Virus record (IMG/VR): IMGVR_UViG_3300020431_000001
Location: 1 to 34,588 of that record
DNA: 34,588 bases
Source: a virus
Lineage: Duplodnaviria > Caudoviricetes
Reading direction: 5' to 3' (one strand)
Shown here: piece by piece, positions 9,805 through 34,588 of the stretch
How the letters are laid out: every line of letters starts with the position of its first letter
Position numbering within the stretch: the first letter of the stretch is position 1
Translations under genes and position numbers: made by a program
The notes under the pieces: model-generated
What the model was told of the DNA's origin: nothing
Seen by the model: only the letters and a program-made list of their open reading frames with translations
The model's database searches: none

Positions 9805-12161
9805 TGGCAATAAAGAATAAAAGATTAGTAACTTCTATAGGTAATATCTCAGTAGGACAATCTTACGCTGGAGGAGAAGCAGCAAAACAAGTAGGCAAAG
9901 CAATATCTGGGCTAGGAGATGTATTAGATAGTACAGTAACATATGCAAACAGAAAAAATAGTAGTGGTCTATCAATAGAATATATTAATACATTAGGTCA
10001 AATACAAAGAAATGAAATTAAAAATGTAGATGAAATAAGTGTAGCAGATGAAACAGAGCAAGCTAAACTTACACAAGCATTTTTAAACCAGGATTATGAA
10101 GCAGACCAAAGAATAACAACTGACAGTGTAGCTACAAGACTTTTTGTTGGGCCAATAAATGATTATATAAATAAACATTTTGATACAACACAAGCTGGAA
10201 CTATACCATTTGGAAATAATTTAGATGATTTTGATCCAGAAGCAGAATTTGATAATTTAATAAAAATATTTAAAGATGGAGAATTTGATTCTTTAAGTGA
10301 AGAAAATCAAGAAACAATTAGAAGTAAAATTATTTTACAAATGTCAAACAAAGTAAGCTCTTTACGACAAAGTCACAATACGATTGTAAGAGCTACTGCA
10401 GACAACAAAGAATGGAATCAATATCAGGATTCTTATTCTGATGGTGTTGAAACAGCAGTTGCTACAAACGGTCTTGGTGGTTTGTTAGTATACAATAAAA
10501 ACTATGAAAATACTGCTGTAGAATTAGCAGTAAAGTTACGAAAAACATATCGTAGAGGTTCAATTACCGCTGCGAATTTACAAATTTTTACTGACGCTAT
10601 AATAGATCAAGCATATCAATCTGATGAAGGACAAGACTATATAAAATCATGGATTAAAGTATTAAACAATAAACAAGAATCTGTTGGCGTTTCTATAGAT
10701 GGTAAAACAGAATTTATTACTAAAGATGATTTAAACGACTATGGTATTAATCCAGAAAATCAAGTTGAGTTTGAAAGAGAGCTTACAGATCATTTAAACT
10801 TAAGTGTTTCTATACAATCTGGAGTACAATTTTTAGGAGCTGGTGGTTCAAACGGCATATATACAGATGTTCAAGCAGCAGAAATAGAAAAAGTTACAAC
10901 CTCTGCAATAGAAGAGTTAACAACCAATCAAGTAGATTCAAATTTTGCTAACATGCCAGTAGAAGAAAAAAGAAAATATTTTAAAAGTTTTGCTTTTACA
11001 ATAGCTTCAGAAAGTAATTATGTAGGAAACAGTATGTCAGATGAAATAGTTAATCAACTTGTAACATCTGGAAACATAGTCGAAATAATGGAAATAGTTT
11101 CTACGTTTGCTAAAATAGAATCTGTTAATACAGGAGCTATTGAATATGGAGATGGTGAAAGTGCTAAAAAATTAGAAAATTTAATAAAACATTATACTGT
11201 TGATCCAGAATTTAGTTTACTTTCTGGTAACAGCATAAGTGAAAGAGTGCAAAATTTTTTACAAAACAACGAACCTATGATTAACGCAGAAAGAGTAACT
11301 GTTTCAATGAAAACAAAATCTGGTAATCTTGATAGTAGTGTAAAATTAAGTAATCTTTTAGGAGTAGGTAGTAATGTTTTAAGTGTTAACGATCAAAAAT
11401 CTTTTACAGATTTATTGTCTGATGGGTTAAGTGAACTTAATAGAAACGAAAGAAATAAAATTCAAGCGACTTTAGGGTTAGACGAAACATTTAGAAAATC
11501 AGATAAAAAAGACGTAGCTAAATTTTCACAAATGCTTACATCAAGAGATCCTATATTTGCAGACTTTATAAAAAACGAAATTTTACTTTCTGTAAGCAAT
11601 CAACTAAATAATACAGAAGAAGGTAATAACGAAGCTATTGATTATAATACATTAAAAGCATATTCAGTTAATGCTGTTGTTAAATTTTCAAAACAATTTA
11701 CATATGATCCTGATAGTAGAAATGGATTTGTTAAAAAAAATAGAGTGCCTGTTACTGCTAAAACATTAAATCTTCCTAAAGAACAACAAGTTAGAATAGT
11801 AGAAAGTAGTGGCGATAAAATATTTAGTTATATAGACAATACAGATAAAGGATTTTATGACAAAGATGATTTACAATTAGAGTATACTGGTGAGGTTGGT
11901 ATTAAAAATGAGGGAGAAGATTTTGTAGCTAGAGCTTTTCAAGTTTATATTTTAAATGATGCTGGTATTTCAGTAGAAGCATATAGAATTACTGAAGATG
12001 GTACTAGAAAAAATATAATTTGGTATGACACAGGGGACAAGCCTCTTACACAAGAAGAATTAAAAAAGAAAGCAAAAGAAAAATTAACAAGTATTAATAA
12101 TTCTCAATCAAAAATTGAAGAGATACTCAATCCTTTTGGATTTAGTAGAGAAGTGTACTAA
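9804..12161 (+). CDS. Internal virion (ejection) protein, gp15-like
   Basis: 785 aa, largely helical, TAATG-coupled; assignment by synteny. Confidence 0.6.
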   Translation: MAIKNKRLVTSIGNISVGQSYAGGEAAKQVGKAISGLGDVLDSTVTYANRKNSSGLSIEYINTLGQIQRNEIKNVDEISVADETEQAKLTQAFLNQDYEADQRITTDSVATRLFVGPINDYINKHFDTTQAGTIPFGNNLDDFDPEAEFDNLIKIFKDGEFDSLSEENQETIRSKIILQMSNKVSSLRQSHNTIVRATADNKEWNQYQDSYSDGVETAVATNGLGGLLVYNKNYENTAVELAVKLRKTYRRGSITAANLQIFTDAIIDQAYQSDEGQDYIKSWIKVLNNKQESVGVSIDGKTEFITKDDLNDYGINPENQVEFERELTDHLNLSVSIQSGVQFLGAGGSNGIYTDVQAAEIEKVTTSAIEELTTNQVDSNFANMPVEEKRKYFKSFAFTIASESNYVGNSMSDEIVNQLVTSGNIVEIMEIVSTFAKIESVNTGAIEYGDGESAKKLENLIKHYTVDPEFSLLSGNSISERVQNFLQNNEPMINAERVTVSMKTKSGNLDSSVKLSNLLGVGSNVLSVNDQKSFTDLLSDGLSELNRNERNKIQATLGLDETFRKSDKKDVAKFSQMLTSRDPIFADFIKNEILLSVSNQLNNTEEGNNEAIDYNTLKAYSVNAVVKFSKQFTYDPDSRNGFVKKNRVPVTAKTLNLPKEQQVRIVESSGDKIFSYIDNTDKGFYDKDDLQLEYTGEVGIKNEGEDFVARAFQVYILNDAGISVEAYRITEDGTRKNIIWYDTGDKPLTQEELKKKAKEKLTSINNSQSKIEEILNPFGFSREVY

Positions 12162-15100
12162 TGCCACTTTTTGAAGATGATAATATAGGAAGTATAGAAA
12201 GAGATTTTTTTAAAAAAATAGAACCTATTGAAACAGAAACAGAAAATAAAGCTGAAGGTATTGGCTTTAAAGATATATCAAGTTTGCCATCCCTTGCTTC
12301 ATATGTATTAAATAATTCATCACAAATATGGGATGATGTTTCAACTCTTTGGAAAACATTGCCAGTCTCCGAAATAAGTACTTTAATACAAAGAGAGAGT
12401 GTAGTTAAACAATTTGGTGTTGATGAAGATTTTGTTAATAACGAATTATGGTGGCAACAAGCTGACAAAGAATTGCTTTTTCATCAGAATGGAAAATTTG
12501 TTAAAGCAATAAGTGAAGCTAATAACTCTCAAGAATTAAAAATAATACAAGATAATATCTATGAAAACCTAGAAGCAAAAGAAAAAATAGGTGATTACAA
12601 TATGGGTTATCAATTATTTTTGTGGAGTACATCTTTAGCCCAAGATCCTTTTATGGTGTTAAATCCAACAAAAGGTATTCATACTTTAAATAGTGCAAGT
12701 AAAAATTTTGCAATAGCTGCAACAAGAACAGCAGCACTAACAATGCCATGGGAAGTAGCAAGATTACAATTAGATCCAACATCAGATTTTAAAGAACTAA
12801 AATATACTTTAGGTGGAGCAATGTTATTTGGCGGAACTATTGGTTCTTTAATGGGAAAGTATAGTAAAAAATTAAGGCATAAAGAAATAGACAAAGTTTT
12901 GAATGATTCCTGGGATGAAATAAATGATCTTATTGATATGCCAAGAAACGAAATGTATTTACTTGGATCAAAGCAAAGAACAAAAGATATAAATTTTAAT
13001 GAGATAGATGAAATATCAGATCAATCATGGAGAAATGATATTTTAAGAGATATAGATGTTAGTAATATTGCTTTTAGAGTAACAAGAAATATTTTAAAAA
13101 GACCTTTTGGTTTAGATAAATCTTGGTTAGATGAGTCTTACGATTCTGTAACTGTTTTAGTAAAAGGAAAAAAAATATCTATTAAAGAAGGTAATGAAAT
13201 ACTAGACATAACAACTAATTTATCTGGAGACAATAGTTATTTACTTACTAAAACTGATGAAACAGTAGAAGCTTCTGTAAATACTCTTTATCAAAAAAAT
13301 CAATATGGAAAAATTCATACAGTAAAAAAATCTATTAATGATGCTTTTTTAGAAATAAATGACATTCAAAGAGGTTATGGATTAGGAGGATTTTTTGGAG
13401 ACATAGATCTTAATATGCAAGCAAAAAGATTAGGAACTACTATTAACAAAGTTAGTCCTATAAAAGTAACAGAAGATGTATTAATTAAGAAAAAAGATAT
13501 AGAAACTTTATTATATTTTGAAAGAGGTTATGCATCAAAAAATTTAGATGAGTTTATAAATAATCATAAAGAAATAATACTAACTAATGATCGTGAAAAA
13601 ATAGCAAAAATATATAAAGCTGTTAAAGAACAATCTAAAGTTTATGGTTCTGTTTATGATGATGTTAAAGCTGATTTAATAAGCGTTGGATTATTAAATG
13701 ACGATTACTCTGCTACCTTAAGAAAAACTATAGATGATTTAGAAGCAAAAATTTCTAAATACAATAACTTAATAAAACAAACAAAAGCAAAAAAAAATAT
13801 AAAAAAAGAAACTAAAGATTTAATTTTATCAAGGTATCAAAACGAATTAGATAAAGTAAGTTTAGTGCTAAGAGCAGAAAAAGAAAACTTAGCAGACTAC
13901 AAGCCAACTGTTGAAACAAAATTTCAAAGTGATTATGTTCCAATTATATATGACACAGGAGCAATAAGAAGAAATAGAGAGTGGGTTACAAATGAAATAA
14001 CAAAAATATATAGTGGGCCTAGAAAGTTAGCAAGAAAAAGAGCAGAAGAAACAATAAAAAAAATATTAAAAGAAGGTGATGGTAATTTTCAAAACACATC
14101 TGGTGTTGGAAGAAAAAAAGGATCTTCTTTTTTACTAGAAAGATCCTTAGATTTACCACCTCATATATTAAAAGTAATTGGTGTAACAGATCCAGAAATT
14201 GTTTTTAAAACATACATTAGAAAAATTGGACCTAGAATTGAAATAGCTAAAAAATATGATGGAGACTTATCATTATCAAAACAACTCGATAGAGTAGATG
14301 AAATATTTAATGATGCTATATTAAAAGCAAAATCTAAAAAAGAAATCAATAGTCTTGATTTACAAAGAATGTTGCACAAACAAAACATAGAAGATATGCG
14401 AGATTCTTTATTAGGCAATCTTATAAAAAATTCTGATGGTAATAGAATAGATGCAAAAATTGCTAGAGATTTAAAAAACTCAGCAGCAATGGCTTTAGGT
14501 GGTACGTTTGGTGTAAATAGTTTTATTGATATGACAAACATTTTAGCTGCTCAAGGATTTAAACCAATTTTTAATACAGCAAAAAATTTATTAACATCTA
14601 CTAAAGCTGCAAGAATTGCTTTAGCAGAAAATAAACAGTTATTAAAAAGCTGGGGTATTTTAAGTGAAATGTCTATGTCAACAGTTGGAGCTAGAGTAAT
14701 AGAAGATGACGGTGTTTTTCCTACTGGCAATAGAATAAGTATGCTTATGGACAAAGGAGCAAATGAAGTACACAAATATAGCGGACTAGGACCTATAACA
14801 AATTTTTTAAAATCAATATCAGGAAGAATATCTCAACAATCATTTATTGAAACATCAATAGAAATTGCTAAAGGTGTAACATATGTAAATGGTAAACCTA
14901 AAGTAAGAATAGACCATAAAAAAAGATTACACATATTAAATATGTACGGTCTTTCTTTAAGAGATGTTTTAGATATAGGACTACAAAGAGCTGGTTCTGG
15001 TGTAACATACACAGAAACAAAAGGATTAGGAACAAAACTTTATAATGTAAATACTGATGCATGGAAAGGAGCAAGAGGTCAAGAACTTGCAGATAAATTT

Positions 15101-24076: not shown

Positions 24077-24289
24077 ATGATTAACCAAGAAACTTTTTTA
24101 GAAGATGTAATAGAGGATGACCAACAAGTATATGTCATACCTTATGCAGACAAGTTAAGGATATGCGTTAATAACAAAACAGTCTGGAAGCCTATGACTG
24201 TTGATGCGTATATGCACTTTATTGTTGGATGTATAGACTCAATGCAAGAGATGAGAAGATTAAACAAATGCAAGTGTGGTAAAAACTAA
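24077..24289 (+). CDS. Hypothetical protein
   Basis: AGGAG RBS; coupled to the next gene. Confidence 0.65.
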   Translation: MINQETFLEDVIEDDQQVYVIPYADKLRICVNNKTVWKPMTVDAYMHFIVGCIDSMQEMRRLNKCKCGKN

Positions 24290-25326
24290 TGCCTATGCCA
24301 CCTGTACCAGAGGAAGAATTGTTAGAAGTTCTTACTGCTGATGAAAGTTTCAACAACAGATACGAAGCTGCTGAATCTTTAGGATTAAAATACGCAACCT
24401 ATATGCAAAGATTACATAAGGCTAAAAACTTACAACCTGATTTTGAAATACCAGATCTTCCTAATGAAGAGATGGACATAGAAGAATTAGTACAGACTGT
24501 AACAGATAGATACGAAAGAAGAGCTAAAGCAAAAGATGCTCAAGACTGGATTGATATTAAAGTAAATATTGATGGGCCTATAGGTATACTATGGATGGGA
24601 GATCCACACATAGATGATAACTACTGTAACTGGACTAGACTAAGAGAAGATATAAAACTTATACAATCTAACTCAGCTATTAAAGGTGCGTCTATAGGTG
24701 ACGTTCATAATAATTGGATAGGTCGTCTCAGTTTGAAATGTAGCCCTGAGCAAGAGACCACTACGGCACAGACTTATGCTCTTATACACTGGCTTATAAA
24801 CAATATGGATCCTCTTATATTAATTAGGGGTAACCATGATTGTTGGACACCGTTTCATAAGGATGCAATGACATGGATGTCACAACCTAAAAGCATTACT
24901 AATGACTGGCAAGTAAAGTTTAAATTAAATTTTCCTAATGGGTATAGTCTTAGTGTAGATTCTCGTCACGATTTTCCAGGTCACTCTCAGTATAATCCTC
25001 TTCATGCTCAGATGAAAGCTTCTCTTTGGAATAGTGATGCTGATCTGTATATTGCTGGTCATCGTCATAACTGGGCAATCCAGAAAATAGAACAACGAAA
25101 TGGGAAAGTTGCTTCGTTAGTTCGGTTAAAAGGATATAAAGATTACGATCAGTATGCTGTTGAGAAAGGGTTTTCTCAGCAGAAACATGGTCAATCAATA
25201 CTGCAAGTGATTGATCCATACTCTTCATCAGAGTCAAAACAGAATTTCTTTGAGAATCCTCAAGAAGGTCACGACTTTCTTTTGTATCTTCAAGATAAGT
25301 ATGGTAAAGATCCACATAAGAAGTAA
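24289..25326 (+). CDS. Calcineurin-like metallophosphoesterase with N-terminal HTH-like segment
   Basis: GDPH, GDVHN, GNHD, RH, GHRH metal-binding motifs; AAESLGLKYATY..RL HTH-like start. Confidence 0.85.
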   Translation: MPMPPVPEEELLEVLTADESFNNRYEAAESLGLKYATYMQRLHKAKNLQPDFEIPDLPNEEMDIEELVQTVTDRYERRAKAKDAQDWIDIKVNIDGPIGILWMGDPHIDDNYCNWTRLREDIKLIQSNSAIKGASIGDVHNNWIGRLSLKCSPEQETTTAQTYALIHWLINNMDPLILIRGNHDCWTPFHKDAMTWMSQPKSITNDWQVKFKLNFPNGYSLSVDSRHDFPGHSQYNPLHAQMKASLWNSDADLYIAGHRHNWAIQKIEQRNGKVASLVRLKGYKDYDQYAVEKGFSQQKHGQSILQVIDPYSSSESKQNFFENPQEGHDFLLYLQDKYGKDPHKK

Positions 25327-25570
25327 GAATATTTTTATCTAATACCTCTGCTTTCTTACAACCATGCATTATAGTTGAATGATCTTTGTTAAACTTGTGT
25401 CCTATCTGTGTGTAAGATAAGTTAGTAAATTTTCTTGATAAGTAATAGGATATAAACCTAGCGTTGACTATAGCTTCGGTACGTCTTGAGCTTTTGATTT
25501 CATCCCATGAAGTATTGTTATCTTCTAATACTTTATTGATAACTTTGTTAAGTGATTTGTTTTTGAACAT
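24950..25570 (-). CDS. DnaA domain IV-like (Bac_DnaA_C) HTH DNA-binding protein
   Basis: S.RR...IV.AR.I.YYLSRKFT.LSY..IG..F.KDHSTIMHG..K; likely start ATG at 25570 with AGGA RBS; C-terminal tail overlaps the phosphoesterase antisense. Confidence 0.8.
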   Translation of the reverse strand: MFKNKSLNKVINKVLEDNNTSWDEIKSSRRTEAIVNARFISYYLSRKFTNLSYTQIGHKFNKDHSTIMHGCKKAEVLDKNILTSYVDLYHTYLEDTKESRDLLEDSQRNSVLTLMKSMDQSLAVLIDHVSAEKTLSQQHTDRNLYILLTELTKQLSHFVVLFSGLPSYDDDQQYTDQHHYSKEKLSSEHEEDYTESDLENRDENLH

Positions 25571-25613
25571 AAGATTTCCTTTATAACATTTATATTTTTT
25601 TTTGGTACGCACT

Positions 25614-26548: not shown

Positions 26549-27448
26549 TTATCCTTTTAGTCTTATTGATAGGTCATTTCTTTTATTACGGCTGACCACA
26601 ACACCGTTGCAAGTAACAGACTTTGCGTCATCTGGTACTAATTCTTTGAGAGCTTCGGCTGTTTGTTTGCGTCGATCCTCAGACTCTTTGGCAGTCTGAT
26701 GCTCGACTTTATAATCGTAACTTAAGTTGTTAAACTCATTACCAAACGCTTCGTCTTTCCTCTCATCAAGATTATATATCACACCTTTGTCTGTTGCAAT
26801 CTTTAACTTCTTGTTTATATTATCTTTTGTCCAGACAGGAAGCGCTCTACTAAACTCTTCGTCATCCATCATCTCTTGCTTAAACCAATCATCAGTCTGG
26901 AAATTTTCTATTAGATCTAATATATCTTTGCATCTATCATAATAAGTTTCAATAAATTCAGAGTCTCTATATACAGTACAATAATCATGTGATGCATTAC
27001 CAAATATACAAGAGAATATTATTTCTTCTTTACCAGATACCATCATATGATGTTGTAATTGTGGGTAGTAATAAGCCATTGCTTTGTCTAATGTATTACG
27101 TTCATTAGTGTGCTTAACTTCTATAATATAACCACTATAAACAGCGTCTACTGTACTGACTAATCTACCTTGATAACGTTTAAAGTGTTCTTGTTCATTC
27201 ATTATTTGTGGAACAAAAATATCTTTATCTTTATTAAGTTTTTTGCGTAACCATTCTAAGTGAAATGACTCAGTTAATATACCTAACTGTACTGGTAGCA
27301 CAGCAGACAAATCATCTGGATCTTTGAGAAAGAATTTTTCTTTCATCATGTTGGTTATCTTTCCGGTGGCTATACTAATAGCATCACTGCTACCTATTTT
27401 TGTACTGTAGTATAGCTGTCGTTCTCCTTCTTTATATTCATCGTTCAT
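26549..27448 (-). CDS. YqaJ/lambda-exonuclease family recombination nuclease
   Basis: IGSSDA, STVDA, IIEVKH, YYPQLQHHM motifs. Confidence 0.85.
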   Translation of the reverse strand: MNDEYKEGERQLYYSTKIGSSDAISIATGKITNMMKEKFFLKDPDDLSAVLPVQLGILTESFHLEWLRKKLNKDKDIFVPQIMNEQEHFKRYQGRLVSTVDAVYSGYIIEVKHTNERNTLDKAMAYYYPQLQHHMMVSGKEEIIFSCIFGNASHDYCTVYRDSEFIETYYDRCKDILDLIENFQTDDWFKQEMMDDEEFSRALPVWTKDNINKKLKIATDKGVIYNLDERKDEAFGNEFNNLSYDYKVEHQTAKESEDRRKQTAEALKELVPDDAKSVTCNGVVVSRNKRNDLSIRLKG

Positions 27449-28876: not shown

Positions 28877-29118
28877 TGTATTCTCCTTTTAACTAATGCA
28901 CTGATGTCTTGAATAACATCAGTTATGTTGACCAGTTTTTTTAATGATACATTAACAACATACTGGTCTGGACTATTGTTAATATATTTTTCTGCTTCAT
29001 CTGTTGAGTTAGCTTGTACTACATAATCTACCTCAACAAATCGCATCTCTAATCTTTTAGTGTGGTACTCTTTCTTAGGTGTACCAGTTCTACCTCTGAT
29101 TCTACCTCTACTAGTCAT
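28873..29118 (-). CDS. Hypothetical protein
   Basis: Likely start MTSRGRIRG at an ATGA overlap; V.A.S..EA motif. Confidence 0.6.
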   Translation of the reverse strand: MTSRGRIRGRTGTPKKEYHTKRLEMRFVEVDYVVQANSTDEAEKYINNSPDQYVVNVSLKKLVNITDVIQDISALVKRRIQ

Positions 29119-29267
29119 GCGTATATCCAGCATTTGTATTGACCACACTCACCATCATCTGTTTCAACGCCACAGTGCACGCATATGCCTTCTTTCTTTG
29201 CTTCTTCTAATTGTTCCAGATGTTCTTGAGCTTCAGCTGCCCAAGTATTAAATGTTTCTTTACTCAT
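29115..29267 (-). CDS. 50-aa Cys-containing (Zn-finger-like) protein
   Basis: GGAGG RBS before MSKETF; CVHC...C...C. Confidence 0.65.
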   Translation of the reverse strand: MSKETFNTWAAEAQEHLEQLEEAKKEGICVHCGVETDDGECGQYKCWIYA

Positions 29268-29439
29268 AGTTATCCTCCATTGTGATTTTATATTCACTGG
29301 TAGTGTGAATAATTTTTTTTCTTCTATGCTTACCGTGTACTAATTCTACAGGTATACTACCATTTACTGTTACGTTACATAACAGTACCGCAAATAAAAA
29401 TATCGTGTTTGTTATTAGGTTCTTCCAATGAGTATTCAC
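29260..29439 (-). CDS. 59-aa hypothetical protein with N-terminal hydrophobic segment, absent from the ORF track
   Basis: GGAGG RBS, GTG start, MNTHWKNLITNTIFLFAVLLCNV...EDNYE. Confidence 0.45.
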   Translation of the reverse strand: MNTHWKNLITNTIFLFAVLLCNVTVNGSIPVELVHGKHRRKKIIHTTSEYKITMEDNYE

Positions 29440-29517
29440 CCTTACCTCCCACAGTAATAGGTAATACTAGGGAATAAATACTATATAACTAGCTTGACAG
29501 TTACGTTTTTTTTAGTG

Positions 29518-29604
29518 TCAGTTTATACTTAATTGTACTTGTATTGTAATAAACAACACGAGTATAAGTATTGTAACTATCAAAGCTTTTGCACCGCTAT
29601 CCAT
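29518..29604 (-). CDS. 28-aa hydrophobic peptide, absent from the ORF track
   Basis: TAATG coupling and GAGGAG upstream; MDSGAKALIVTILILVLFITIQVQLSIN. Confidence 0.5.
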   Translation of the reverse strand: MDSGAKALIVTILILVLFITIQVQLSIN

Positions 29605-29792
29605 TAAAACTCCTCTACTATTTCAGACGCATCAATAGTTATTTCGCATCTGGTATTTTTTGTACTAGCTTTATTTATCTTATTAATTATCTTGTGATAA
29701 AAATCTTTTGTCTCATCATCTTGTATACTACATAGGTATAGTATACTTGTCAGACTTTGACAGTCATCTTCGTTTAAATATATTGATGTCAT
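29604..29792 (-). CDS. Hypothetical protein
   Basis: AAGGAG RBS; coupled stop/start. Confidence 0.65.
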   Translation of the reverse strand: MTSIYLNEDDCQSLTSILYLCSIQDDETKDFYHKIINKINKASTKNTRCEITIDASEIVEEF

Positions 29793-29974
29793 TATAACTC
29801 CTTATCATTGTGTTTGTGTTCTGCTACCCAGATACAATCTTTTAATTCATCTCTATAGAATTGTTTTTCTCCATGAGTTATAGCTTTACGAAGCATTTTT
29901 CTTGCTCTTGTAATGCGTTCAATCAATCGTATCTTACTGTCGTTGACAGGATTATCTTCTGGTATCATCATCAA
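29792..29974 (-). CDS. Hypothetical protein
   Basis: AAGGA RBS; within the operon. Confidence 0.6.
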   Translation of the reverse strand: MMMIPEDNPVNDSKIRLIERITRARKMLRKAITHGEKQFYRDELKDCIWVAEHKHNDKEL

Positions 29975-30365
29975 TCATTCCTTTATTAAGTATTCTTCTG
30001 CGACCTTGACGAGTCAAACCAAAGACTCGTTGCTCACATCCAGATAATCCTTTACGTTTCATTACTGGTATTTCACCAGCAGTTCTAACGTTACCATTCC
30101 AGTTAGCTTGGAAATCATGGAACACAAATGCGTACCCACCTTTAACAAGCTGACTTAATCTTGATGATACAGACACTTCTTTAGATGATATGTCATAAGC
30201 TATGTGTGAAAAGGTGCTGCCTCTATGACCAGCACGCCACATACTATGTAAAATTTTATCATCAAGAGTAACCTTAACTTTATTCTTAGATGTTACTGGA
30301 TCTGTCTTGCGGTAAGGTGTAGCTGTATATAGTTCAACTACTTTGTCATCATAATCTACTATCAT
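29952..30365 (-). CDS. Winged-helix DNA-binding-like protein
   Basis: R.TDP.TS then G.T...IA......SVSSRLSQLVKGG, ...RVFGLT..G. Confidence 0.6.
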   Translation of the reverse strand: MIVDYDDKVVELYTATPYRKTDPVTSKNKVKVTLDDKILHSMWRAGHRGSTFSHIAYDISSKEVSVSSRLSQLVKGGYAFVFHDFQANWNGNVRTAGEIPVMKRKGLSGCEQRVFGLTRQGRRRILNKGMIDDDTRR

Positions 30366-30610
30366 TACTTCTCTCCATTATCTTCTGTTGCAAGGTCATC
30401 ATTCATGGCGTTAATAAAACCACCAATCATTAGACCTTTATGTGCTTCACTAAGCTCTGGGTTATTTAATATATCTATTACATTACCCATTACATGGTCG
30501 ACATACTTGGTCTTGTATTCATCAAGATAACCACCGTTATCTTTGATTACTTTATTCTTCATGCCAGTAACTAAAGCGTCAGCTGGACTTGGTATTTTTT
30601 TATCAGTCAT
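30365..30610 (-). CDS. Hypothetical protein
   Basis: AGGAG RBS; coupled to the next gene. Confidence 0.65.
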   Translation of the reverse strand: MTDKKIPSPADALVTGMKNKVIKDNGGYLDEYKTKYVDHVMGNVIDILNNPELSEAHKGLMIGGFINAMNDDLATEDNGEK

Positions 30611-30674
30611 TGTGTTCTCCTATATGATAAAATTATTATAGCACTATACACATTAATCCACAAGCTCTGCTATA

Positions 30675-30947
30675 TTAAACTTGCTTGGTAAACTCAAGTT
30701 CATACTCACCTTTATTAAGATGGGCCTCTACTAATACTTTGTTGTTAATAGAAAACCTAAAGGTTTGAGATCCGTCATCATTTTTTTTATGTGTAACTCT
30801 GTGGTCACATAAAGTGTGACTGTTCATAGATGATGTGCCTACTTTAATAGTAACACAACCATCTTTTCTGTTACCGTATGACTTACTGCCTTGATACAAA
30901 CAGTTAGTCACGTCATTCCATATTGGGTATTGTCTAGTCATTGTCAT
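30675..30947 (-). CDS. Hypothetical early protein
   Basis: AAGGAG RBS; YPIWN.V..C.Y..SKSYG motif. Confidence 0.7.
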   Translation of the reverse strand: MTMTRQYPIWNDVTNCLYQGSKSYGNRKDGCVTIKVGTSSMNSHTLCDHRVTHKKNDDGSQTFRFSINNKVLVEAHLNKGEYELEFTKQV

Positions 30948-31187
30948 CTCCTTTTGTTATATCTGCTTGCACTTTTAAAGTCGTTCCATCCCAACAGATT
31001 AAAAGATGGTGGTGACTATTAGAATTTTTTTCTGTTGTTCACCTAGTGTTTTACGAAAGTGGCTTTTACCCTGGGGAAAGGGAAGCCGGTGGCATTAGCT
31101 ACGTGCCTCAATTCTTCACCAGATGAACAACATAGTCTGCAAAGCATTGTTAAAAATAATGATTTAACAATAACCGTTAAATGCAGA

Positions 31188-31218
31188 CAAAAGAATAGCC
31201 GAATAAATCGGCTACTCT
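31188..31218 (-). terminator. Rho-independent terminator of the 204-aa gene
   Basis: The - strand reads agagtagccga-tttat-tcggctattct-tttg, starting 10 nt after the stop codon. Confidence 0.7.
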
Positions 31219-31228
31219 AAATCTTAGA

Positions 31229-31843
31229 TTACTTTATCTTAGATAGTTTTAGCTTTTGTTCTTTTAACAATTGCTCTGTTGACTTAACCGTAACTGATGG
31301 TTTCTTAGAATCTTTATTCCATCTCTTTTGTTGGGCTACCTGATATTCATTATAAGTTTGACCAAAGAAGAATGTCCAAAGATAATCACCAGTATAGAGT
31401 CTTTTCTCTTTCGCAAACTTATCTAGCTGTGCTTGGTTTAAGTCGATGAAAATGTCATGCGTATTTAGTCTAGCTAAAGCACCAAGTTCTGGTGAATGAA
31501 AAGGTCGACCATTTTCATCGGTAGTACCATCTCTAAGAGATTCTTCTTCGAAGTTCTTAAGCATTTTAGAGATGTCTGCGTCAATCCAATCGTTTTCTGC
31601 CATAATTTGGTGATACTTTTGTTGATGGATTGTTATGCTTCTAGTGAAGCAACTTATATTATGATTAACTTCCTTAAGTTTACCTTTGATTAAGTCTCGG
31701 GCTATCTTATTTGGGTAGTGTTGACCAGCTAAATTACCATTAAGGTAAATTCCAGCTCTCTTACCATCCTTGTAAGTATCTAACTCTGAAACGGAAGCGT
31801 TTAGTAGTTCCTCGACGAGGTCGTTTTGATTTTTTAAAGACAT
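31229..31843 (-). CDS. 204-aa orphan protein forming the left arm of the inverted repeat
   Basis: Intact ORF with AGGAGA RBS, own promoter and terminator; no family recognised. Confidence 0.8.
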   Translation of the reverse strand: MSLKNQNDLVEELLNASVSELDTYKDGKRAGIYLNGNLAGQHYPNKIARDLIKGKLKEVNHNISCFTRSITIHQQKYHQIMAENDWIDADISKMLKNFEEESLRDGTTDENGRPFHSPELGALARLNTHDIFIDLNQAQLDKFAKEKRLYTGDYLWTFFFGQTYNEYQVAQQKRWNKDSKKPSVTVKSTEQLLKEQKLKLSKIK

Positions 31844-31879
31844 AGTTATTCTCCTATCTGTCTGTTAATGGGATATACC

Positions 31880-31907
31880 ATTATGCTAACCCCACATACA
31901 TTTTCAA
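31880..31907 (-). promoter_or_regulatory. sigma70-like promoter for the 204-aa gene
   Basis: The - strand reads TTGAAA-16 nt-CATAAT, with an A-tract upstream; -10 about 36 nt before the ATG. Confidence 0.6.
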
Positions 31908-32049
31908 ACGAACTCTTTTTTGCACCCTCTTGGGGGTATATGTTTCATAAAAACATATACGAATAATATCTGGAAACAAGAATCGCCGGAAAGCTTGCTT
32001 GAGGAATCGACTGAAATACTTCAGTCGTTCTATTCTTGGTGTAGGATAT

Positions 32050-32819
32050 TGCAAAATCGGATTGAATCTGTATTTGTTGGGTTTGCTTTGGTATATGCTT
32101 TTGACAGACAGATAGGCAGAATGACTAGTCTTTACAAAAGCGAAACGCCCTCGGCGTTGGAACTGCTTAACGGTTGCGTTTCAGAGTTAGAAACTTACAT
32201 CTCCTCGCCTTGGGCGTGGTGAGTAGGATGGTCTGGAATTTCCTTGATGGTCATTTAGATGTGTTGTCAACACACCCAAATGAGATGGCACGTGACTTTA
32301 ACAAAGGTAACTTAAGAAGTTAATTGTAATATAAGTTAGGTGAACTTGAAGTATCACAAGCCATCAAGAAAATATCCCAAATTATCAGAAAAGGATGGAT
32401 TGTCCAGACTTCCTAAAATCTTAGAAGTTCGGAGAAGAATGTCTTAGTAGATGGTCTCCGATGACAATGTCACCTTTTCACCACCAGGAGTTGGCGGTTT
32501 AGCAGACTAAATGCATGACATTCTTCATTGACTTAAGCCTAGCACTGCTGATAAGTTTGCCGTAAGAGAAAAACGAATAGACTGGTAGGTTATCTTGGAC
32601 TTTATTCTTTGGTACAAACTTGTTATGAATATGAGGTAGGCAAACAAAAGTTTAGATGGAATAGATTCTAAGGAATCGTCAGTTGCTTAAGTCAACAGAG
32701 TGATTGTTAAAAGTTACAAACGCTAAACTATCTACGATTAAGTAATCTTGATTTAGAGTAGACTATTTATGAGACCTATTCTTAGGTCTGCTTTTAACAA
32801 TCAACAATGCTTTGCAGAC
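32050..32819 (+). pseudogene. Non-coding inverted mirror of the 204-aa transcription unit (probably a structural arm rather than a simple pseudogene)
   Basis: Start codon deleted (ctATGtc -> ctagtc), RBS interrupted (aggaga -> aggcaga), -10 destroyed, many frameshifting indels; residual translation ELLNGCVSELETY vs ELLNASVSELDTY. Confidence 0.8.
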
Positions 32820-32977
32820 GGTAGTTACAACCATAGCTATCCTGATAATACTATAATGTAGATTACTCGAATCTAATAAGTCAATCAGCCGTGTTGTCAC
32901 TTCGTGACTGCCCGCACCCAGACTGTTGACTTTTAGATTACAAGCAATCTTGTGATTGCGTATAACAGGAGATAACT

Positions 32978-33163
32978 ATGGACATAACTACTCAACAAAA
33001 CATTGCAGATATTATGATTACAAGCACTCTTTTCTTAGCAGTCGCTATACTAAGCTATGTAACTTACATCGCATTTAAACAAGAATTAACGCTCTGGATT
33101 AGAATACCAGCACTTATCTTAGCGATGCTAAGTCTAGTGCTTCTGTCATTATCTGGACTATAA
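32978..33163 (+). CDS. Small two-TM membrane protein
   Basis: AGGAGA RBS; two hydrophobic helices. Confidence 0.7.
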   Translation: MDITTQQNIADIMITSTLFLAVAILSYVTYIAFKQELTLWIRIPALILAMLSLVLLSLSGL

Positions 33164-33196
33164 ACAGATATATTTAGACATATGTTGATAACTGTA

Positions 33197-33225
33197 TTGA
33201 CATATTTATAATCTATCCCTACTCT
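33197..33225 (+). promoter_or_regulatory. sigma70-like promoter upstream of terS
   Basis: TTGACA-17 nt-TACTCT. Confidence 0.65.
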
Positions 33226-33264
33226 TTAAGTAACACGATTCATTACTTAATTTGAGGTTAACAT

Positions 33265-33648
33265 ATGTCTAAAGTACCCAGTACAAATAACCAATCGCTG
33301 ACACAGCTTCAGCAGAGTTTTGTAGATAACTACTTAGCCAATGGTGGCAATGGTAAACAGGCTTGCATAACGGCAGGATACAGCGAGAACTCAGCTCATG
33401 TTCAGGCGAGTAAATTGGTTAAGCTTCCACACATACAGCAAGCCTTACTCAAAGGTACTGCAGAAGCCATTGGTCTAGGCTCTGCTAAAGCTGTTCAGAA
33501 GTTAGTGTCTCTATCTGGCGGAGCTAAGTCAGAGTATGTTCAGCTTGAAGCATCTAGGGATTTATTAGACCGTGCTGGATTTAAAGCACCAGATAGAGCC
33601 GATATACGGCTTGATAGTGATATAAAGATTAGTATTGATTTAACGTAG
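33265..33648 (+). CDS. terS: Terminase small subunit
   Basis: LT..Q..FVD.Y...GGN...A...AGYS..SA...AS.L...P.I; SEYVQLEAS.DLLDRAG; GAGG RBS. Confidence 0.9.
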   Translation: MSKVPSTNNQSLTQLQQSFVDNYLANGGNGKQACITAGYSENSAHVQASKLVKLPHIQQALLKGTAEAIGLGSAKAVQKLVSLSGGAKSEYVQLEASRDLLDRAGFKAPDRADIRLDSDIKISIDLT

Positions 33649-33721
33649 GGGGGGGTTAAAACTCAAGCGTGATGTTATGTTACTTCACCTTTACTAACAT
33701 TATTTTTTAAAAAGGTTCGTT

Positions 33722-33991
33722 ATGACTGATGAAGAAGATCCAGACAACATAGTACATATAGAGTTTAGCCCTGATGGGCCTAAGACTCCATCTAGTGTTA
33801 TTAAATTTTTAAGTACCAAAAGTAAGGATATAGTTGGTATTACTTGCATTGTTGAGTTTGATGATGGTAGGATGGGTTTATATGCAAATGATAAGGATAT
33901 ATATTCCTTTTTGTTTGAACAAAGGTTTTTAAAATATTTTGTAGACCAGGAGTTTGAAGGAAGAATTGGCTTATACACAGAAGAAAAGTAA
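33722..33991 (+). CDS. Hypothetical protein
   Basis: 89-aa ORF coupled to the next gene. Confidence 0.6.
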   Translation: MTDEEDPDNIVHIEFSPDGPKTPSSVIKFLSTKSKDIVGITCIVEFDDGRMGLYANDKDIYSFLFEQRFLKYFVDQEFEGRIGLYTEEK

Positions 33992-34143
33992 TGGTAAAAA
34001 GAAATCAACCACCACACCGCCCAAGGGTAGAAGAAAGATTGGCACACTGCGTGCAATGTCAAAGAAGTCTAAGTCGTACTGATAAATACGTCATCAATAT
34101 GTTAGATGATTTTACTTGCCTAGCCTGTTACGAAGGTAGATAA
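33991..34143 (+). CDS. 50-aa CxxC...CxxC zinc-finger-like protein, absent from the ORF track
   Basis: TAATG coupling; MVKRNQPPHRPRVEERLAHCVQCQRSLSRTDKYVINMLDDFTCLACYEGR. Confidence 0.65.
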   Translation: MVKRNQPPHRPRVEERLAHCVQCQRSLSRTDKYVINMLDDFTCLACYEGR

Positions 34144-34326
34144 ATGGATAAATCTAAAAAGAAAGAACAAAGTGGTATTGATATACTAGGAAAATTCCTT
34201 GAATCAGAAGATAGTATGGAATGTTCTAAATGTTCTACGAATATAAACTTTGATGATAATTTTGTTTTTACACACGACAGTAGATTGTTATGTAGAAGTT
34301 GTTTTGAGCATAGTAAATGCAATTAA
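34144..34326 (+). CDS. 60-aa CxxC...CxxC zinc-finger-like protein
   Basis: CSKC...CRSC; starts right after the previous stop and overlaps the terL start. Confidence 0.65.
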   Translation: MDKSKKKEQSGIDILGKFLESEDSMECSKCSTNINFDDNFVFTHDSRLLCRSCFEHSKCN

Positions 34327-34588
34327 AGTATAAGCCAGACGGTGTAACTCTTAAAAAATTTATGAAGAATGATAGCTTCTTTAGAGGATTGCGTGGTCCT
34401 GTTGGTAGCGGTAAGTCTGTTGCCTGTTGTATTGAAATATTCAGAAGATGTTTGCTGCAAGAACCTAATGAAGATGGTATACGCAAATCAAGATGGGCAG
34501 TTATAAGGAATACCAACCCACAATTAAGGACAACTACCATTAAGACTTGGATAGATTGGTTTCCAGAGAATGACTGGGGTAGGTTTAG
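34317..34588 (+). CDS. terL: Terminase large subunit, N-terminal part (joins 1-1329)
   Basis: MQLKYKPDG...RGLRGPVGSGKS (Walker A)...RWAVIRNTNPQL. Confidence 0.93.
   Translation, partial: MQLKYKPDGVTLKKFMKNDSFFRGLRGPVGSGKSVACCIEIFRRCLLQEPNEDGIRKSRWAVIRNTNPQLRTTTIKTWIDWFPENDWGRF
34512..34588. repeat. Terminal overlap, identical to 1-77
   Basis: Exact 77-nt match. Confidence 0.97.

Follow-up and report, generated by a model that had tools for sequence, protein, structure and literature searches.

A non-coding mirror of the first early gene in a podovirus genome and its candidate role as a single-strand promoter cassette

The window analyzed here is the 34,588-nt IMG/VR virus record IMGVR_UViG_3300020431_000001 (positions 1 to 34,588), which represents a complete circular podovirus genome of 34% GC with a 77-nt end repeat, in a record classed with direct terminal repeats. 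The + strand of this genome encodes the terminase, portal, capsid, T7-like tail and internal virion proteins. The early block on the - strand encodes a protein that binds single-stranded DNA (SSB), a YqaJ/RecE-like exonuclease (26549-27448), a replication-initiator domain and helix-turn-helix (HTH) proteins. At the point where the leftward early block diverges from the rightward operon of terS, the terminase small-subunit gene, lie two self-complementary stretches, or rods, in which the start or the whole of a gene faces a non-coding inverted copy of itself, the mirror. We refer to a gene arm together with its mirror as a cassette. The closest cultured relative of the phage is Pelagibacter phage EXVC031P Hodr (OQ414635.1; TerL 63%, capsid 63%, TerS 47%) and the host is probably a marine alphaproteobacterium. 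Genome matches were not used for host assignment, as they consisted of five contigs in bins of metagenome-assembled genomes (MAGs) of unrelated taxa. Labels of the form Lnnn denote the related loci or genomes that were compared, and Xnn the DNA or RNA sequencing runs that were searched for contigs.

Cassette 1 is formed by the first leftward gene, which encodes a 204-aa protein, and its mirror. In a self-BLAST of the genome, one inverted repeat stood out, at 955 bits against 35 bits for the runner-up. It spans 31176-32798, with 74.8% identity across 1697 columns, and a stricter alignment widened this rod to 31135-32819. Rod arms are 60-78% complementary overall and the longest perfect run in rod 1 is 15 bp. 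When 31780-32200 was folded as single-stranded DNA (ssDNA), the + strand reached -113.3 kcal/mol (z-score -18.7, with 0 of 100 shuffles as low) and the - strand -96.6 kcal/mol (z-score -14.4). An earlier note on this DNA had described the left arm as the template of the 204-aa gene and the right arm as sense-like, and this was borne out by the geometry of the open reading frame (ORF). The self-alignment also contained a detail given in that note, in that the mirror has TTGAAT opposite the -35 box, a mismatch and gap opposite the -10 box, and resumes pairing at TGGTATAT. The start codon is broken in mirror 1 and there are 12-24 stops per frame in all six frames. A 100-aa ORF with a TTG start that runs across the loop (31920-32222) was rejected as a gene; it had no family, and the three mirrors described below gave no tblastx match to one another. 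A contig from DNA run X2, which belongs to a different study than the possible source run X1, extends from the arm through the loop into the mirror (31462-32490) with 3 differences, and relatives at 47% protein identity own rods of their own, which together show that rod 1 is not an assembly artifact. Rod 1 is real and conserved.

Cassette 2, which the earlier note does not mention, is a hairpin over the start of a 61-aa ORF, with the mirror upstream of that ORF and the - strand as the template. Its overlap with the end of mirror 1 amounts to 20-30 nt, and the two mirrors meet near 32800. The mirror of each cassette lies 3' of the template arm (Table 1). The - strand of cassette 2 folds better than the + strand (-38.2 vs -32.0 kcal/mol, z-score -6.6), and the template strand was the better folder in 7 of 7 genomes of the clade of this phage, the clade to which the search for cassette 2 was confined, although the margins were small in some. 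Among 863 windows across the genome, cassettes 1 and 2 were the two strongest. In L001 (5067-5527), L002, L003 and L005, there are 196-460 nt with no obvious gene between the cassettes, which may hold a further mirror or a packaging start.

Table 1. Features of the two cassettes and of the terS promoter region (positions in the 34,588-nt window).
Feature	Positions	Strand	Remarks
Rod 1, left (template) arm	31135-31925	+	Terminator, entire coding sequence, ribosome-binding site (RBS), promoter region
Terminator-like hairpin closing the 204-aa gene	31192-31218	-	Rod 1 extends just beyond it
First leftward (early-side) gene, 204 aa, all-helical	31229-31843	-	+ strand is the template arm of rod 1
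Small hairpin, 6-bp stem	31866-31883	-	23-40 nt ahead of the ATG; read by eye
Promoter candidate of the earlier note, TTGAAA (31907-31902) -16- CATAAT (31885-31880)	31880-31907	-	Double-stranded-DNA (dsDNA) type, gene strand
Rod 1, branched apical loop	31926-32048	+	Small hairpins, one at 32008-32027
Mirror 1	32049-32819	+	Non-coding, sense-like copy of promoter, RBS, coding sequence and terminator
Candidate fold-dependent promoter in mirror 1, TTGCAA-16-TATTTG	32049-32076	+
Side hairpin inserted in mirror 1	32200-32228	+	About 75 nt past the ATG position
Cassette 2, hairpin over start of 61-aa ORF	32800-33010	-	- strand folds better; mirror upstream of the ORF
Cassette 2, mirror promoter candidate TTGACT-18-TACATT	32855-32884	-	TATAAT in L001
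61-aa hydrophobic ORF under cassette 2	32978-33163	+	Hydrophobicity by eye; no family
Canonical dsDNA promoter(s) of terS, TTGATA-16-TATAAT and TTGACA-17-TACTCT	33185-33225	+
terS, terminase small subunit	33265-33648	+	Pfam Terminase_2, E 7e-14

The distribution of such stretches was determined in two sets of loci. Set 1 comprised 80 IMG/VR loci found with the terS of this genome, together with Hodr and this genome (82 in all; hairpin cut-off E < 1e-6), and set 2 comprised 85 loci found with the Hodr terS and in MAG contigs, 69 of which had at least 800 nt upstream. A self-complementary stretch was identified in 40 of the 82 loci of set 1 and in 38 of the 69 of set 2. The centers were at most 1.5 kb upstream of terS in 43 of 44 and 41 of 41 cases. 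The position just upstream of terS, which the earlier note had singled out, recurs in these related loci. In aligned loci the left arm takes in the start of the first leftward gene together with its RBS and promoter region; 8 of 23 set-2 representatives had no such ORF start in the arm. Arm length varies across the family from less than 100 to 800 nt. The mirror in this genome spans the full transcription unit to its terminator, whereas those of most relatives span the promoter, RBS and first 50-300 nt only; the longest rods (this genome, L084, L073, L080 and L180) end at the 3' end of the gene or at its terminator. The cassette has also been swapped between phages that are 95% identical elsewhere (L001; run X4; 30961-33000 in this genome), which carry another first gene and mirror within approximately 31030-32860.

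Hodr has the same cassette at 11907-12676, with TTGTTA-16-TATATT in the mirror and TTGTTA-18-TATTAC in the gene arm. Its rod differs in being approximately 700 nt, in having a weak strand bias and a mirror that extends into the terS coding region, and in having nothing annotated there; its first gene encodes 147 aa with no detectable similarity to the 204-aa gene. Entry of the mirror into the terS coding region, by 50-110 nt, was seen in several lineages, namely L022, L024, L035, L038, L116 and L081 (Hodr, 11907-12036), such that terS codons also pair with the template of the first gene. The sole center of the 44 downstream of the terS start belongs to L033, in which terS ends (+363 to +476) in a near-perfect hairpin of 114 nt. 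An inverted repeat at the same place in HTVC010P (L094; 34563-31, E 2e-16) was not counted since it is very AT-rich and both of its arms start ORFs; its score was 145, compared to no more than 132 in 30 shuffles. At this place in the record (34563-34892 and 1-290), an unannotated ORF of about 90 aa begins directly at the junction, divergent from gp64 and with a similar RBS region. No inverted repeat was found at the corresponding place in MEP301 or Vibrio phage 1.257.O. Many loci have a 5-7-bp palindrome 20-45 nt ahead of the first gene whose structure is kept and whose sequence is not, and which was broken in the mirrors inspected by eye; a hairpin at the 5' end of the mRNA, or an operator present only in dsDNA, would be possible roles for it.

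The mirrors have evolved with the genes they face. The 204-aa gene occurs in three lineages (this genome; L083, L084, L087 and L088; and L086) whose proteins are 47-52% identical, and each lineage has its own mirror. Mirrors aligned to their own gene with scores of 566-874 and to the genes of the other lineages with scores of 171-306. At sites where the genes are discordant, the mirror sided with its own gene by 189:9, 192:12, 180:10, 151:4, 146:9 and 118:6. All three mirrors (this genome, L084 and L086) have a side hairpin approximately 75 nt past the ATG position. Two-sided changes between L084 and L083 kept the pair in 5 of 5 cases, and those in 14 comparisons, which share members, kept a Watson-Crick pair in 29 of 30. 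In another family of 13 sequences, RNAalifold found two-sided changes in 16 of 61 consensus pairs, missing the poorly aligned middle of the stem, and the pairs that covary cluster in the upper stem, ahead of either predicted start site. Between strains there were 0-3 differences per mirror piece. The tracking of its own gene by each mirror and the compensatory changes rule out a single decaying duplication. Together, these data indicated that the mirrors are non-coding fold-back partners that evolution has held complementary to the adjacent genes.

Selection on the fold acts on one strand. Isolated mismatches were counted in 19 rods (about one per lineage, chosen by us from the 40 of set 1, L084 and L086 being added). 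On the + strand of the 19 rods, G.T outnumbered A.C by 125 to 7, G.G outnumbered C.C by 33 to 3 and T.T outnumbered A.A by 63 to 11, with 52 G.A and 64 C.T. In 23 new representatives the counts were 42 to 8 for G.T and A.C, 5 to 1 for G.G and C.C, 9 to 8 for T.T and A.A, and 30 to 33 for G.A and C.T; the T.T excess was thus not replicated. The + strand folded better than the - strand in 17 of the 19 rods, under DNA and RNA parameters alike. An A in the gene with a G at the matching site of the mirror was found 71 times against 3, which is opposite to the AT drift expected at this GC content. At 4 of 19 loci, namely those of this genome, L084, L078 and Hodr, perfect runs were shorter than expected by chance (p <=0.04; combined p 0.0005). 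The fold is therefore selected on the template strand only (+ for a leftward gene), and the + strand is the folding strand, as the earlier note had it.

The promoter boxes named in that note were less successful. TTGAAA-16-CATAAT is on the coding strand of the gene and is thus a candidate for an ordinary dsDNA promoter, and it is not conserved, the orthologues having TTGCCT/TGTAAG and TTGTTT at this site. The mirror bears a candidate fold-dependent promoter of its own. All three mirrors share TTGNAA, then a TCGG-TTG stretch and then a -10-like TA(T/C) box at 15-16 nt, and the gene arms of the three lineages have GTGNAA with spacers of 21-36 nt.

Promoter scores were obtained from raw sequence with E. 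coli-type sigma70 weights and compared to dinucleotide shuffles. A first scan of 28 loci showed neither strand in clear excess (4.87 and 5.08 against 4.89 and 4.49; no significance test). We then combined 35 leftward cassettes, some of related lineages: 21 of those 28 loci, after 7 close relatives were dropped, and 14 of the 23 set-2 representatives, with L122 and the 8 without an ORF start excluded. The mirrors scored 5.69 against 4.52 in shuffles (p 0.005) and exceeded the gene strand in 23 of 35, and the gene strand scored 4.80 against 4.67 (p 0.64). Mirror windows further downstream had no excess (p 0.98, 26 windows). Most loci have a TTGACA-type promoter at terS, with a mean score of 10.1 in the 27 loci scored. 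The mirror signal was clear in cassette 2, whose gene arm has TTGACT-18-TTGTGA at 32926-32955, and in L001, L141, L152, L155 and Hodr. In L152 and L155, TTGACA is present in both arms, and the mirror has TAGGTT at 17 nt only if a 30-nt insert loops out, while the gene strand has GAGGTG at the -10 position. In dsDNA, 47 nt separate the mirror boxes, and the gene strand lacks a -10 box, so neither strand of these two loci is a dsDNA promoter. A general looping-out rule (40 cassettes, p 5e-6) was not relied on, because it was devised after L152 and L155 were seen and one cassette-2 row was misaligned into mirror 1.

Expression data were available from six RNA runs, as unstranded contigs only. In three of these runs, from two studies, the contig of the gene ends at 31870/31871 with no loose end, where the contig of DNA run X2 continues. 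This stop is 10 nt past TTGAAA-16-CATAAT and hints weakly that a transcript begins at the promoter, which would be compatible with a single- or a double-stranded template. Runs X17 and X18 contain relatives that carry another cassette. The missing contigs of X15 and X16 over 31974-32924 were not counted as evidence of a silent mirror. Left ends of contigs were in excess 0-250 nt before terS (15 vs 5.2 per bin, 160 loci), which weakly hints at a genome end there but may also be an assembly effect or the edge of the variable cassette. The Skadi paper gives 125-bp terminal repeats in related pelagiphage assemblies whose ends were not mapped (PMC10504331).

The closest known systems are Frpo1 and Frpo2 of plasmid F, and ssi1-3 and the class 2-3 ssDNA promoters of ColIb-P9 and pESBL (PMC9849209, PMC12672017, PMC11541004). 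According to PMC9849209, the -10 and -35 boxes of Frpo are reconstituted in the stem that it forms on folding, and the element is silenced when it is converted to dsDNA. Like the F and ColIb-P9 elements, the phage cassettes have an imperfect stem upstream of a gene with the mirror 3' of the template arm, a template strand that folds, weak candidate -35 and -10 boxes within the stem, and a bias for G.T over A.C. Unlike them, they occur in a tailed dsDNA phage with no known single-strand stage and no conjugative leading region next to oriT (no relaxase or transfer gene was found among the proteins scanned of this podovirus genome). Their arms extend up to 800 nt over RBS, coding sequence and terminator, and are bound to follow protein-coding sequence; there are two cassettes on opposite strands, and G.A is not favored. 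The phage rods had no likeness to F or ColIb-P9 hairpins by eye, no alignment having been run. Judged by their geometry, the cassettes would work like Frpo/ssi elements, yet we do not class them as members, given that a conjugative leading region and the preference for G.A are absent. The Frpo-like interpretation offered in the earlier note thus survives in part, supported by the fold on the template strand, the F/ColIb-P9 geometry and the family-wide mirror signal, and without its named promoter or its single-strand entry.

Other hairpin systems are less similar. Phage N4, a podovirus, uses short template-strand hairpin promoters and a virion RNA polymerase for its first transcription, whereas the stems here are 100-800 bp with sigma70-like boxes and no polymerase gene was found. 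RSF1010 ssiA and ssiB, one per strand, and the M13 minus-strand origin are single-strand initiation hairpins that prime replication and cover no gene, unlike the phage cassettes, which cover gene starts or a whole gene. The T7 terminal-repeat hairpin is a short repeat near a phage genome end. Similarly, the T5 injection-stop region has short inverted repeats in non-coding DNA near the genome end (10.1101/866236). Neither the T5 nor the T7 repeats mirror a gene, as the phage rods do.

On balance, we lean towards the cassettes being single-strand promoters of the Frpo kind, which would most likely operate on the 3' overhangs of genome ends that have been opened or resected. We infer three of the steps involved, namely that the folded molecule is DNA, that a polymerase uses the fold, and the source of the single strand. 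The genome would be opened at or near the mirror junction (approximately 32800) or just before terS, and the virion DNA ends would be trimmed 5'-to-3' by the YqaJ/RecE-like exonuclease of the phage or by a host nuclease. With each mirror placed 3' of its template arm, such trimming would leave behind precisely the folding strand, which is + at the right end of the genome and - at its left end. The template strand, without its partner, would fold onto the mirror, which would supply the -35 and -10 boxes and a stand-in coding strand, and host sigma70 RNA polymerase would transcribe the gene from the folded template. In this way the first gene may be expressed and the 3' end tucked away before circularization, after which the restored duplex would switch expression off or pass it to a dsDNA promoter. 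End-trimming is the simplest layout that uses both cassettes. Entry of the phage as one single strand, as suggested in the earlier note, is a poor fit because cassette 2 folds on the opposite strand and such entry needs cassettes on one strand only. A more far-reaching proposal, which we offer tentatively and consider rather doubtful, is that both genome ends are fold-back expression cassettes in a widespread family of marine podoviruses. An attack on the ends would then switch on the first genes, plausibly for an end-protecting or anti-nuclease protein, and seal the ends, with the gene-length mirror serving as a back-up coding strand.

Several results weigh against a single-strand DNA promoter, and some of them favor a duplex of RNA. 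Cassette 1 of this genome departs from the family pattern, since it is the gene strand that holds the best-scoring promoter (p 0.03) and the mirror does not exceed chance (p 0.71), so the RNA end at 31870 fits ordinary dsDNA transcription equally well. With a matrix built from 125 terS promoter candidates, both arms were above chance and the mirror exceeded the gene in 22 of 40 (p 0.40). No hairpin reached the threshold in 42 of 82 loci of set 1 and 31 of 69 of set 2. Of the 7 genomes with two rods, 3 have them abutting or overlapping (gap <=30 nt), whereas the other 4 have 196-460 nt between them, and no junction motif is shared. DNA parameters predict a gap of G.A over C.T resembling that of G.T over A.C, and the phage rods do not show it. 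A control of eight hairpins upstream of F and ColIb-P9 leading genes, picked by eye from 13 genes and called ssDNA promoters by their position from PMC9849209 and PMC12672017, had 13 G.T to 1 A.C and 16 G.A to 4 C.T. In the phage rods G.A was no commoner than C.T (Fisher p 0.007 relative to this control, which is small and has related members); the DNA-type spectrum, a yardstick of our own, is thus absent from them. The log-likelihood of the spectrum was -165.6 under RNA parameters and -187.4 and -189.0 under DNA parameters, with plain G/T enrichment best at -151.8. Two contig pieces of RNA run X19 fall within the mirror region (32177-32325 and 32773-32935), and one of X20 crosses the promoter (31745-31905).

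These last results could be accommodated if a + RNA through both arms folds and hides its antisense half, or if a rightward mirror promoter makes an mRNA-like decoy that pairs with antisense RNA, with cassette 2 doing likewise on the other strand. The high G.T to A.C and G.G to C.C ratios with equal G.A and C.T fit the energies of RNA 1x1 loops better and differ from the Frpo/ssi control, and, where the spacing of a mirror promoter box is undisturbed, the box doubles as a rightward dsDNA promoter. However, the boxes of L152 and L155 are in register only in the fold, and covarying pairs are found upstream of both predicted start sites. There was also no excess of RNA tetraloops (1 GNRA and 0 UNCG on the + strand among hairpins of 34 loci), no Rfam match at E up to 1 over 29000-34588, and no second instance of the T.T excess, and the RNA contigs that end at the promoter weakly hint the same way. 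We weighed geometry and promoter boxes above the mismatch spectrum, in favor of DNA, and consider an RNA duplex unlikely. The main rival among DNA explanations is replication priming from the folds, in which the rods are divergent RNA-polymerase priming sites, or fold-back ends that prime their own synthesis and thereby seal or duplicate the termini, and transcription is secondary. Two opposite-strand hairpins that point away from one point are a layout for priming both leading strands, and no primase or DNA polymerase was found among the 33 proteins scanned. Fold-back copying, by template switching, would explain a mirror that tracks its gene. Moreover, Frpo transcripts prime complementary-strand synthesis in F (10.64898/2026.01.09.698686). 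Against this, the aligned hairpins include the RBS and start codon and the longest reach the gene end or terminator, which is more than a primer needs, and cassette 2 was identified in the clade of this genome only (7 genomes); we therefore regard a replication or end-processing signal as quite improbable.

A free end would be unnecessary if the folds were extruded from intact dsDNA by supercoiling together with SSB or a helicase, as in N4. The presence of a cassette on each strand, the SSB encoded by the phage and the small conserved gene-arm hairpin near the start site would suit such a mechanism. Extrusion from a perfect duplex would nevertheless be costly with arms that are 60-78% complementary and a longest perfect run of 15 bp, and family searches found no RNA polymerase family in the 785- and 1256-aa virion proteins, neither of which was folded; we judge extrusion very unlikely. 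Least probable of all, and already largely refuted, is a recurrent functionless inverted duplication kept similar by template switching. The wide range of arm lengths (<100-800 nt) and the swapping of the cassette between 95%-identical phages could be taken in its favor. The strand asymmetry (71 vs 3), the fixed position, the side hairpins at matching places, the shorter-than-chance perfect runs at 4 of 19 loci and the few differences (0-3) per mirror piece between strains all argue against it.

A single cluster homologous to the 204-aa protein was found at 47%, others being more distant (25-30% across approximately 100 residues). It matched no PHROG, Pfam or NCBIfam family and had no usable Atlas match, and a PDB sequence match to 8ye6_B ('A32', E 0.065) was not taken up. 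Structure prediction and a fold search, recommended in the earlier note, reached a pLDDT (predicted local distance difference test) of 75 in one of five models of this protein and 87 for a family of 130-150-aa first-gene proteins. Comparison of both folds returned only generic coiled-coil matches or unnamed phage proteins and thus no anti-defense function that could be named, and the two families did not align with one another. An anti-defense or end-protecting role of the 204-aa protein is suggested by its position, and the slot of the first-expressed gene is likely a counter-defense slot. To the left of the first gene, one or two genes past the cassette, L002 and L003 have ORFs of about 325 aa and L005 one of about 350 aa with an HExxH motif, which by eye look like antirestriction proteins of the ArdC type. 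Elsewhere in the genome, a DnaA C-terminal DNA-binding domain (Pfam E 2e-20) was identified in a 220-aa ORF (24950-25612, -), which shares approximately 375 nt with a convergent 345-aa phosphoesterase ORF (24289-25326, +). A sigma70 match of 11/12 at 29757-29784 (+), antisense into the early genes, may be due to chance (19 such sites found, 16.8 expected).

Single-strand promoters were described for conjugative plasmids only, and none in tailed phages, in the literature searched, which covered few subscription journals. As far as that search goes, the occurrence of fold-back mirror cassettes in a tailed dsDNA phage is new. An 800-nt non-coding sequence tracks a protein gene base by base, and the rods mark a first-expressed gene that is swapped between close relatives. 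The cultured pair of Hodr and Pelagibacter HTCC1062, and the promoters of L152 and L155 that exist only in the fold, make the question directly testable. To our knowledge, tailed phages are taken to be double-stranded from ejection onward. That a strand-specific fold is conserved at a single fixed site in roughly half of some 150 related marine phage loci would imply a single-stranded stage, or a large unknown RNA, in their life cycle, and this consequence concerns abundant phages of the ocean.

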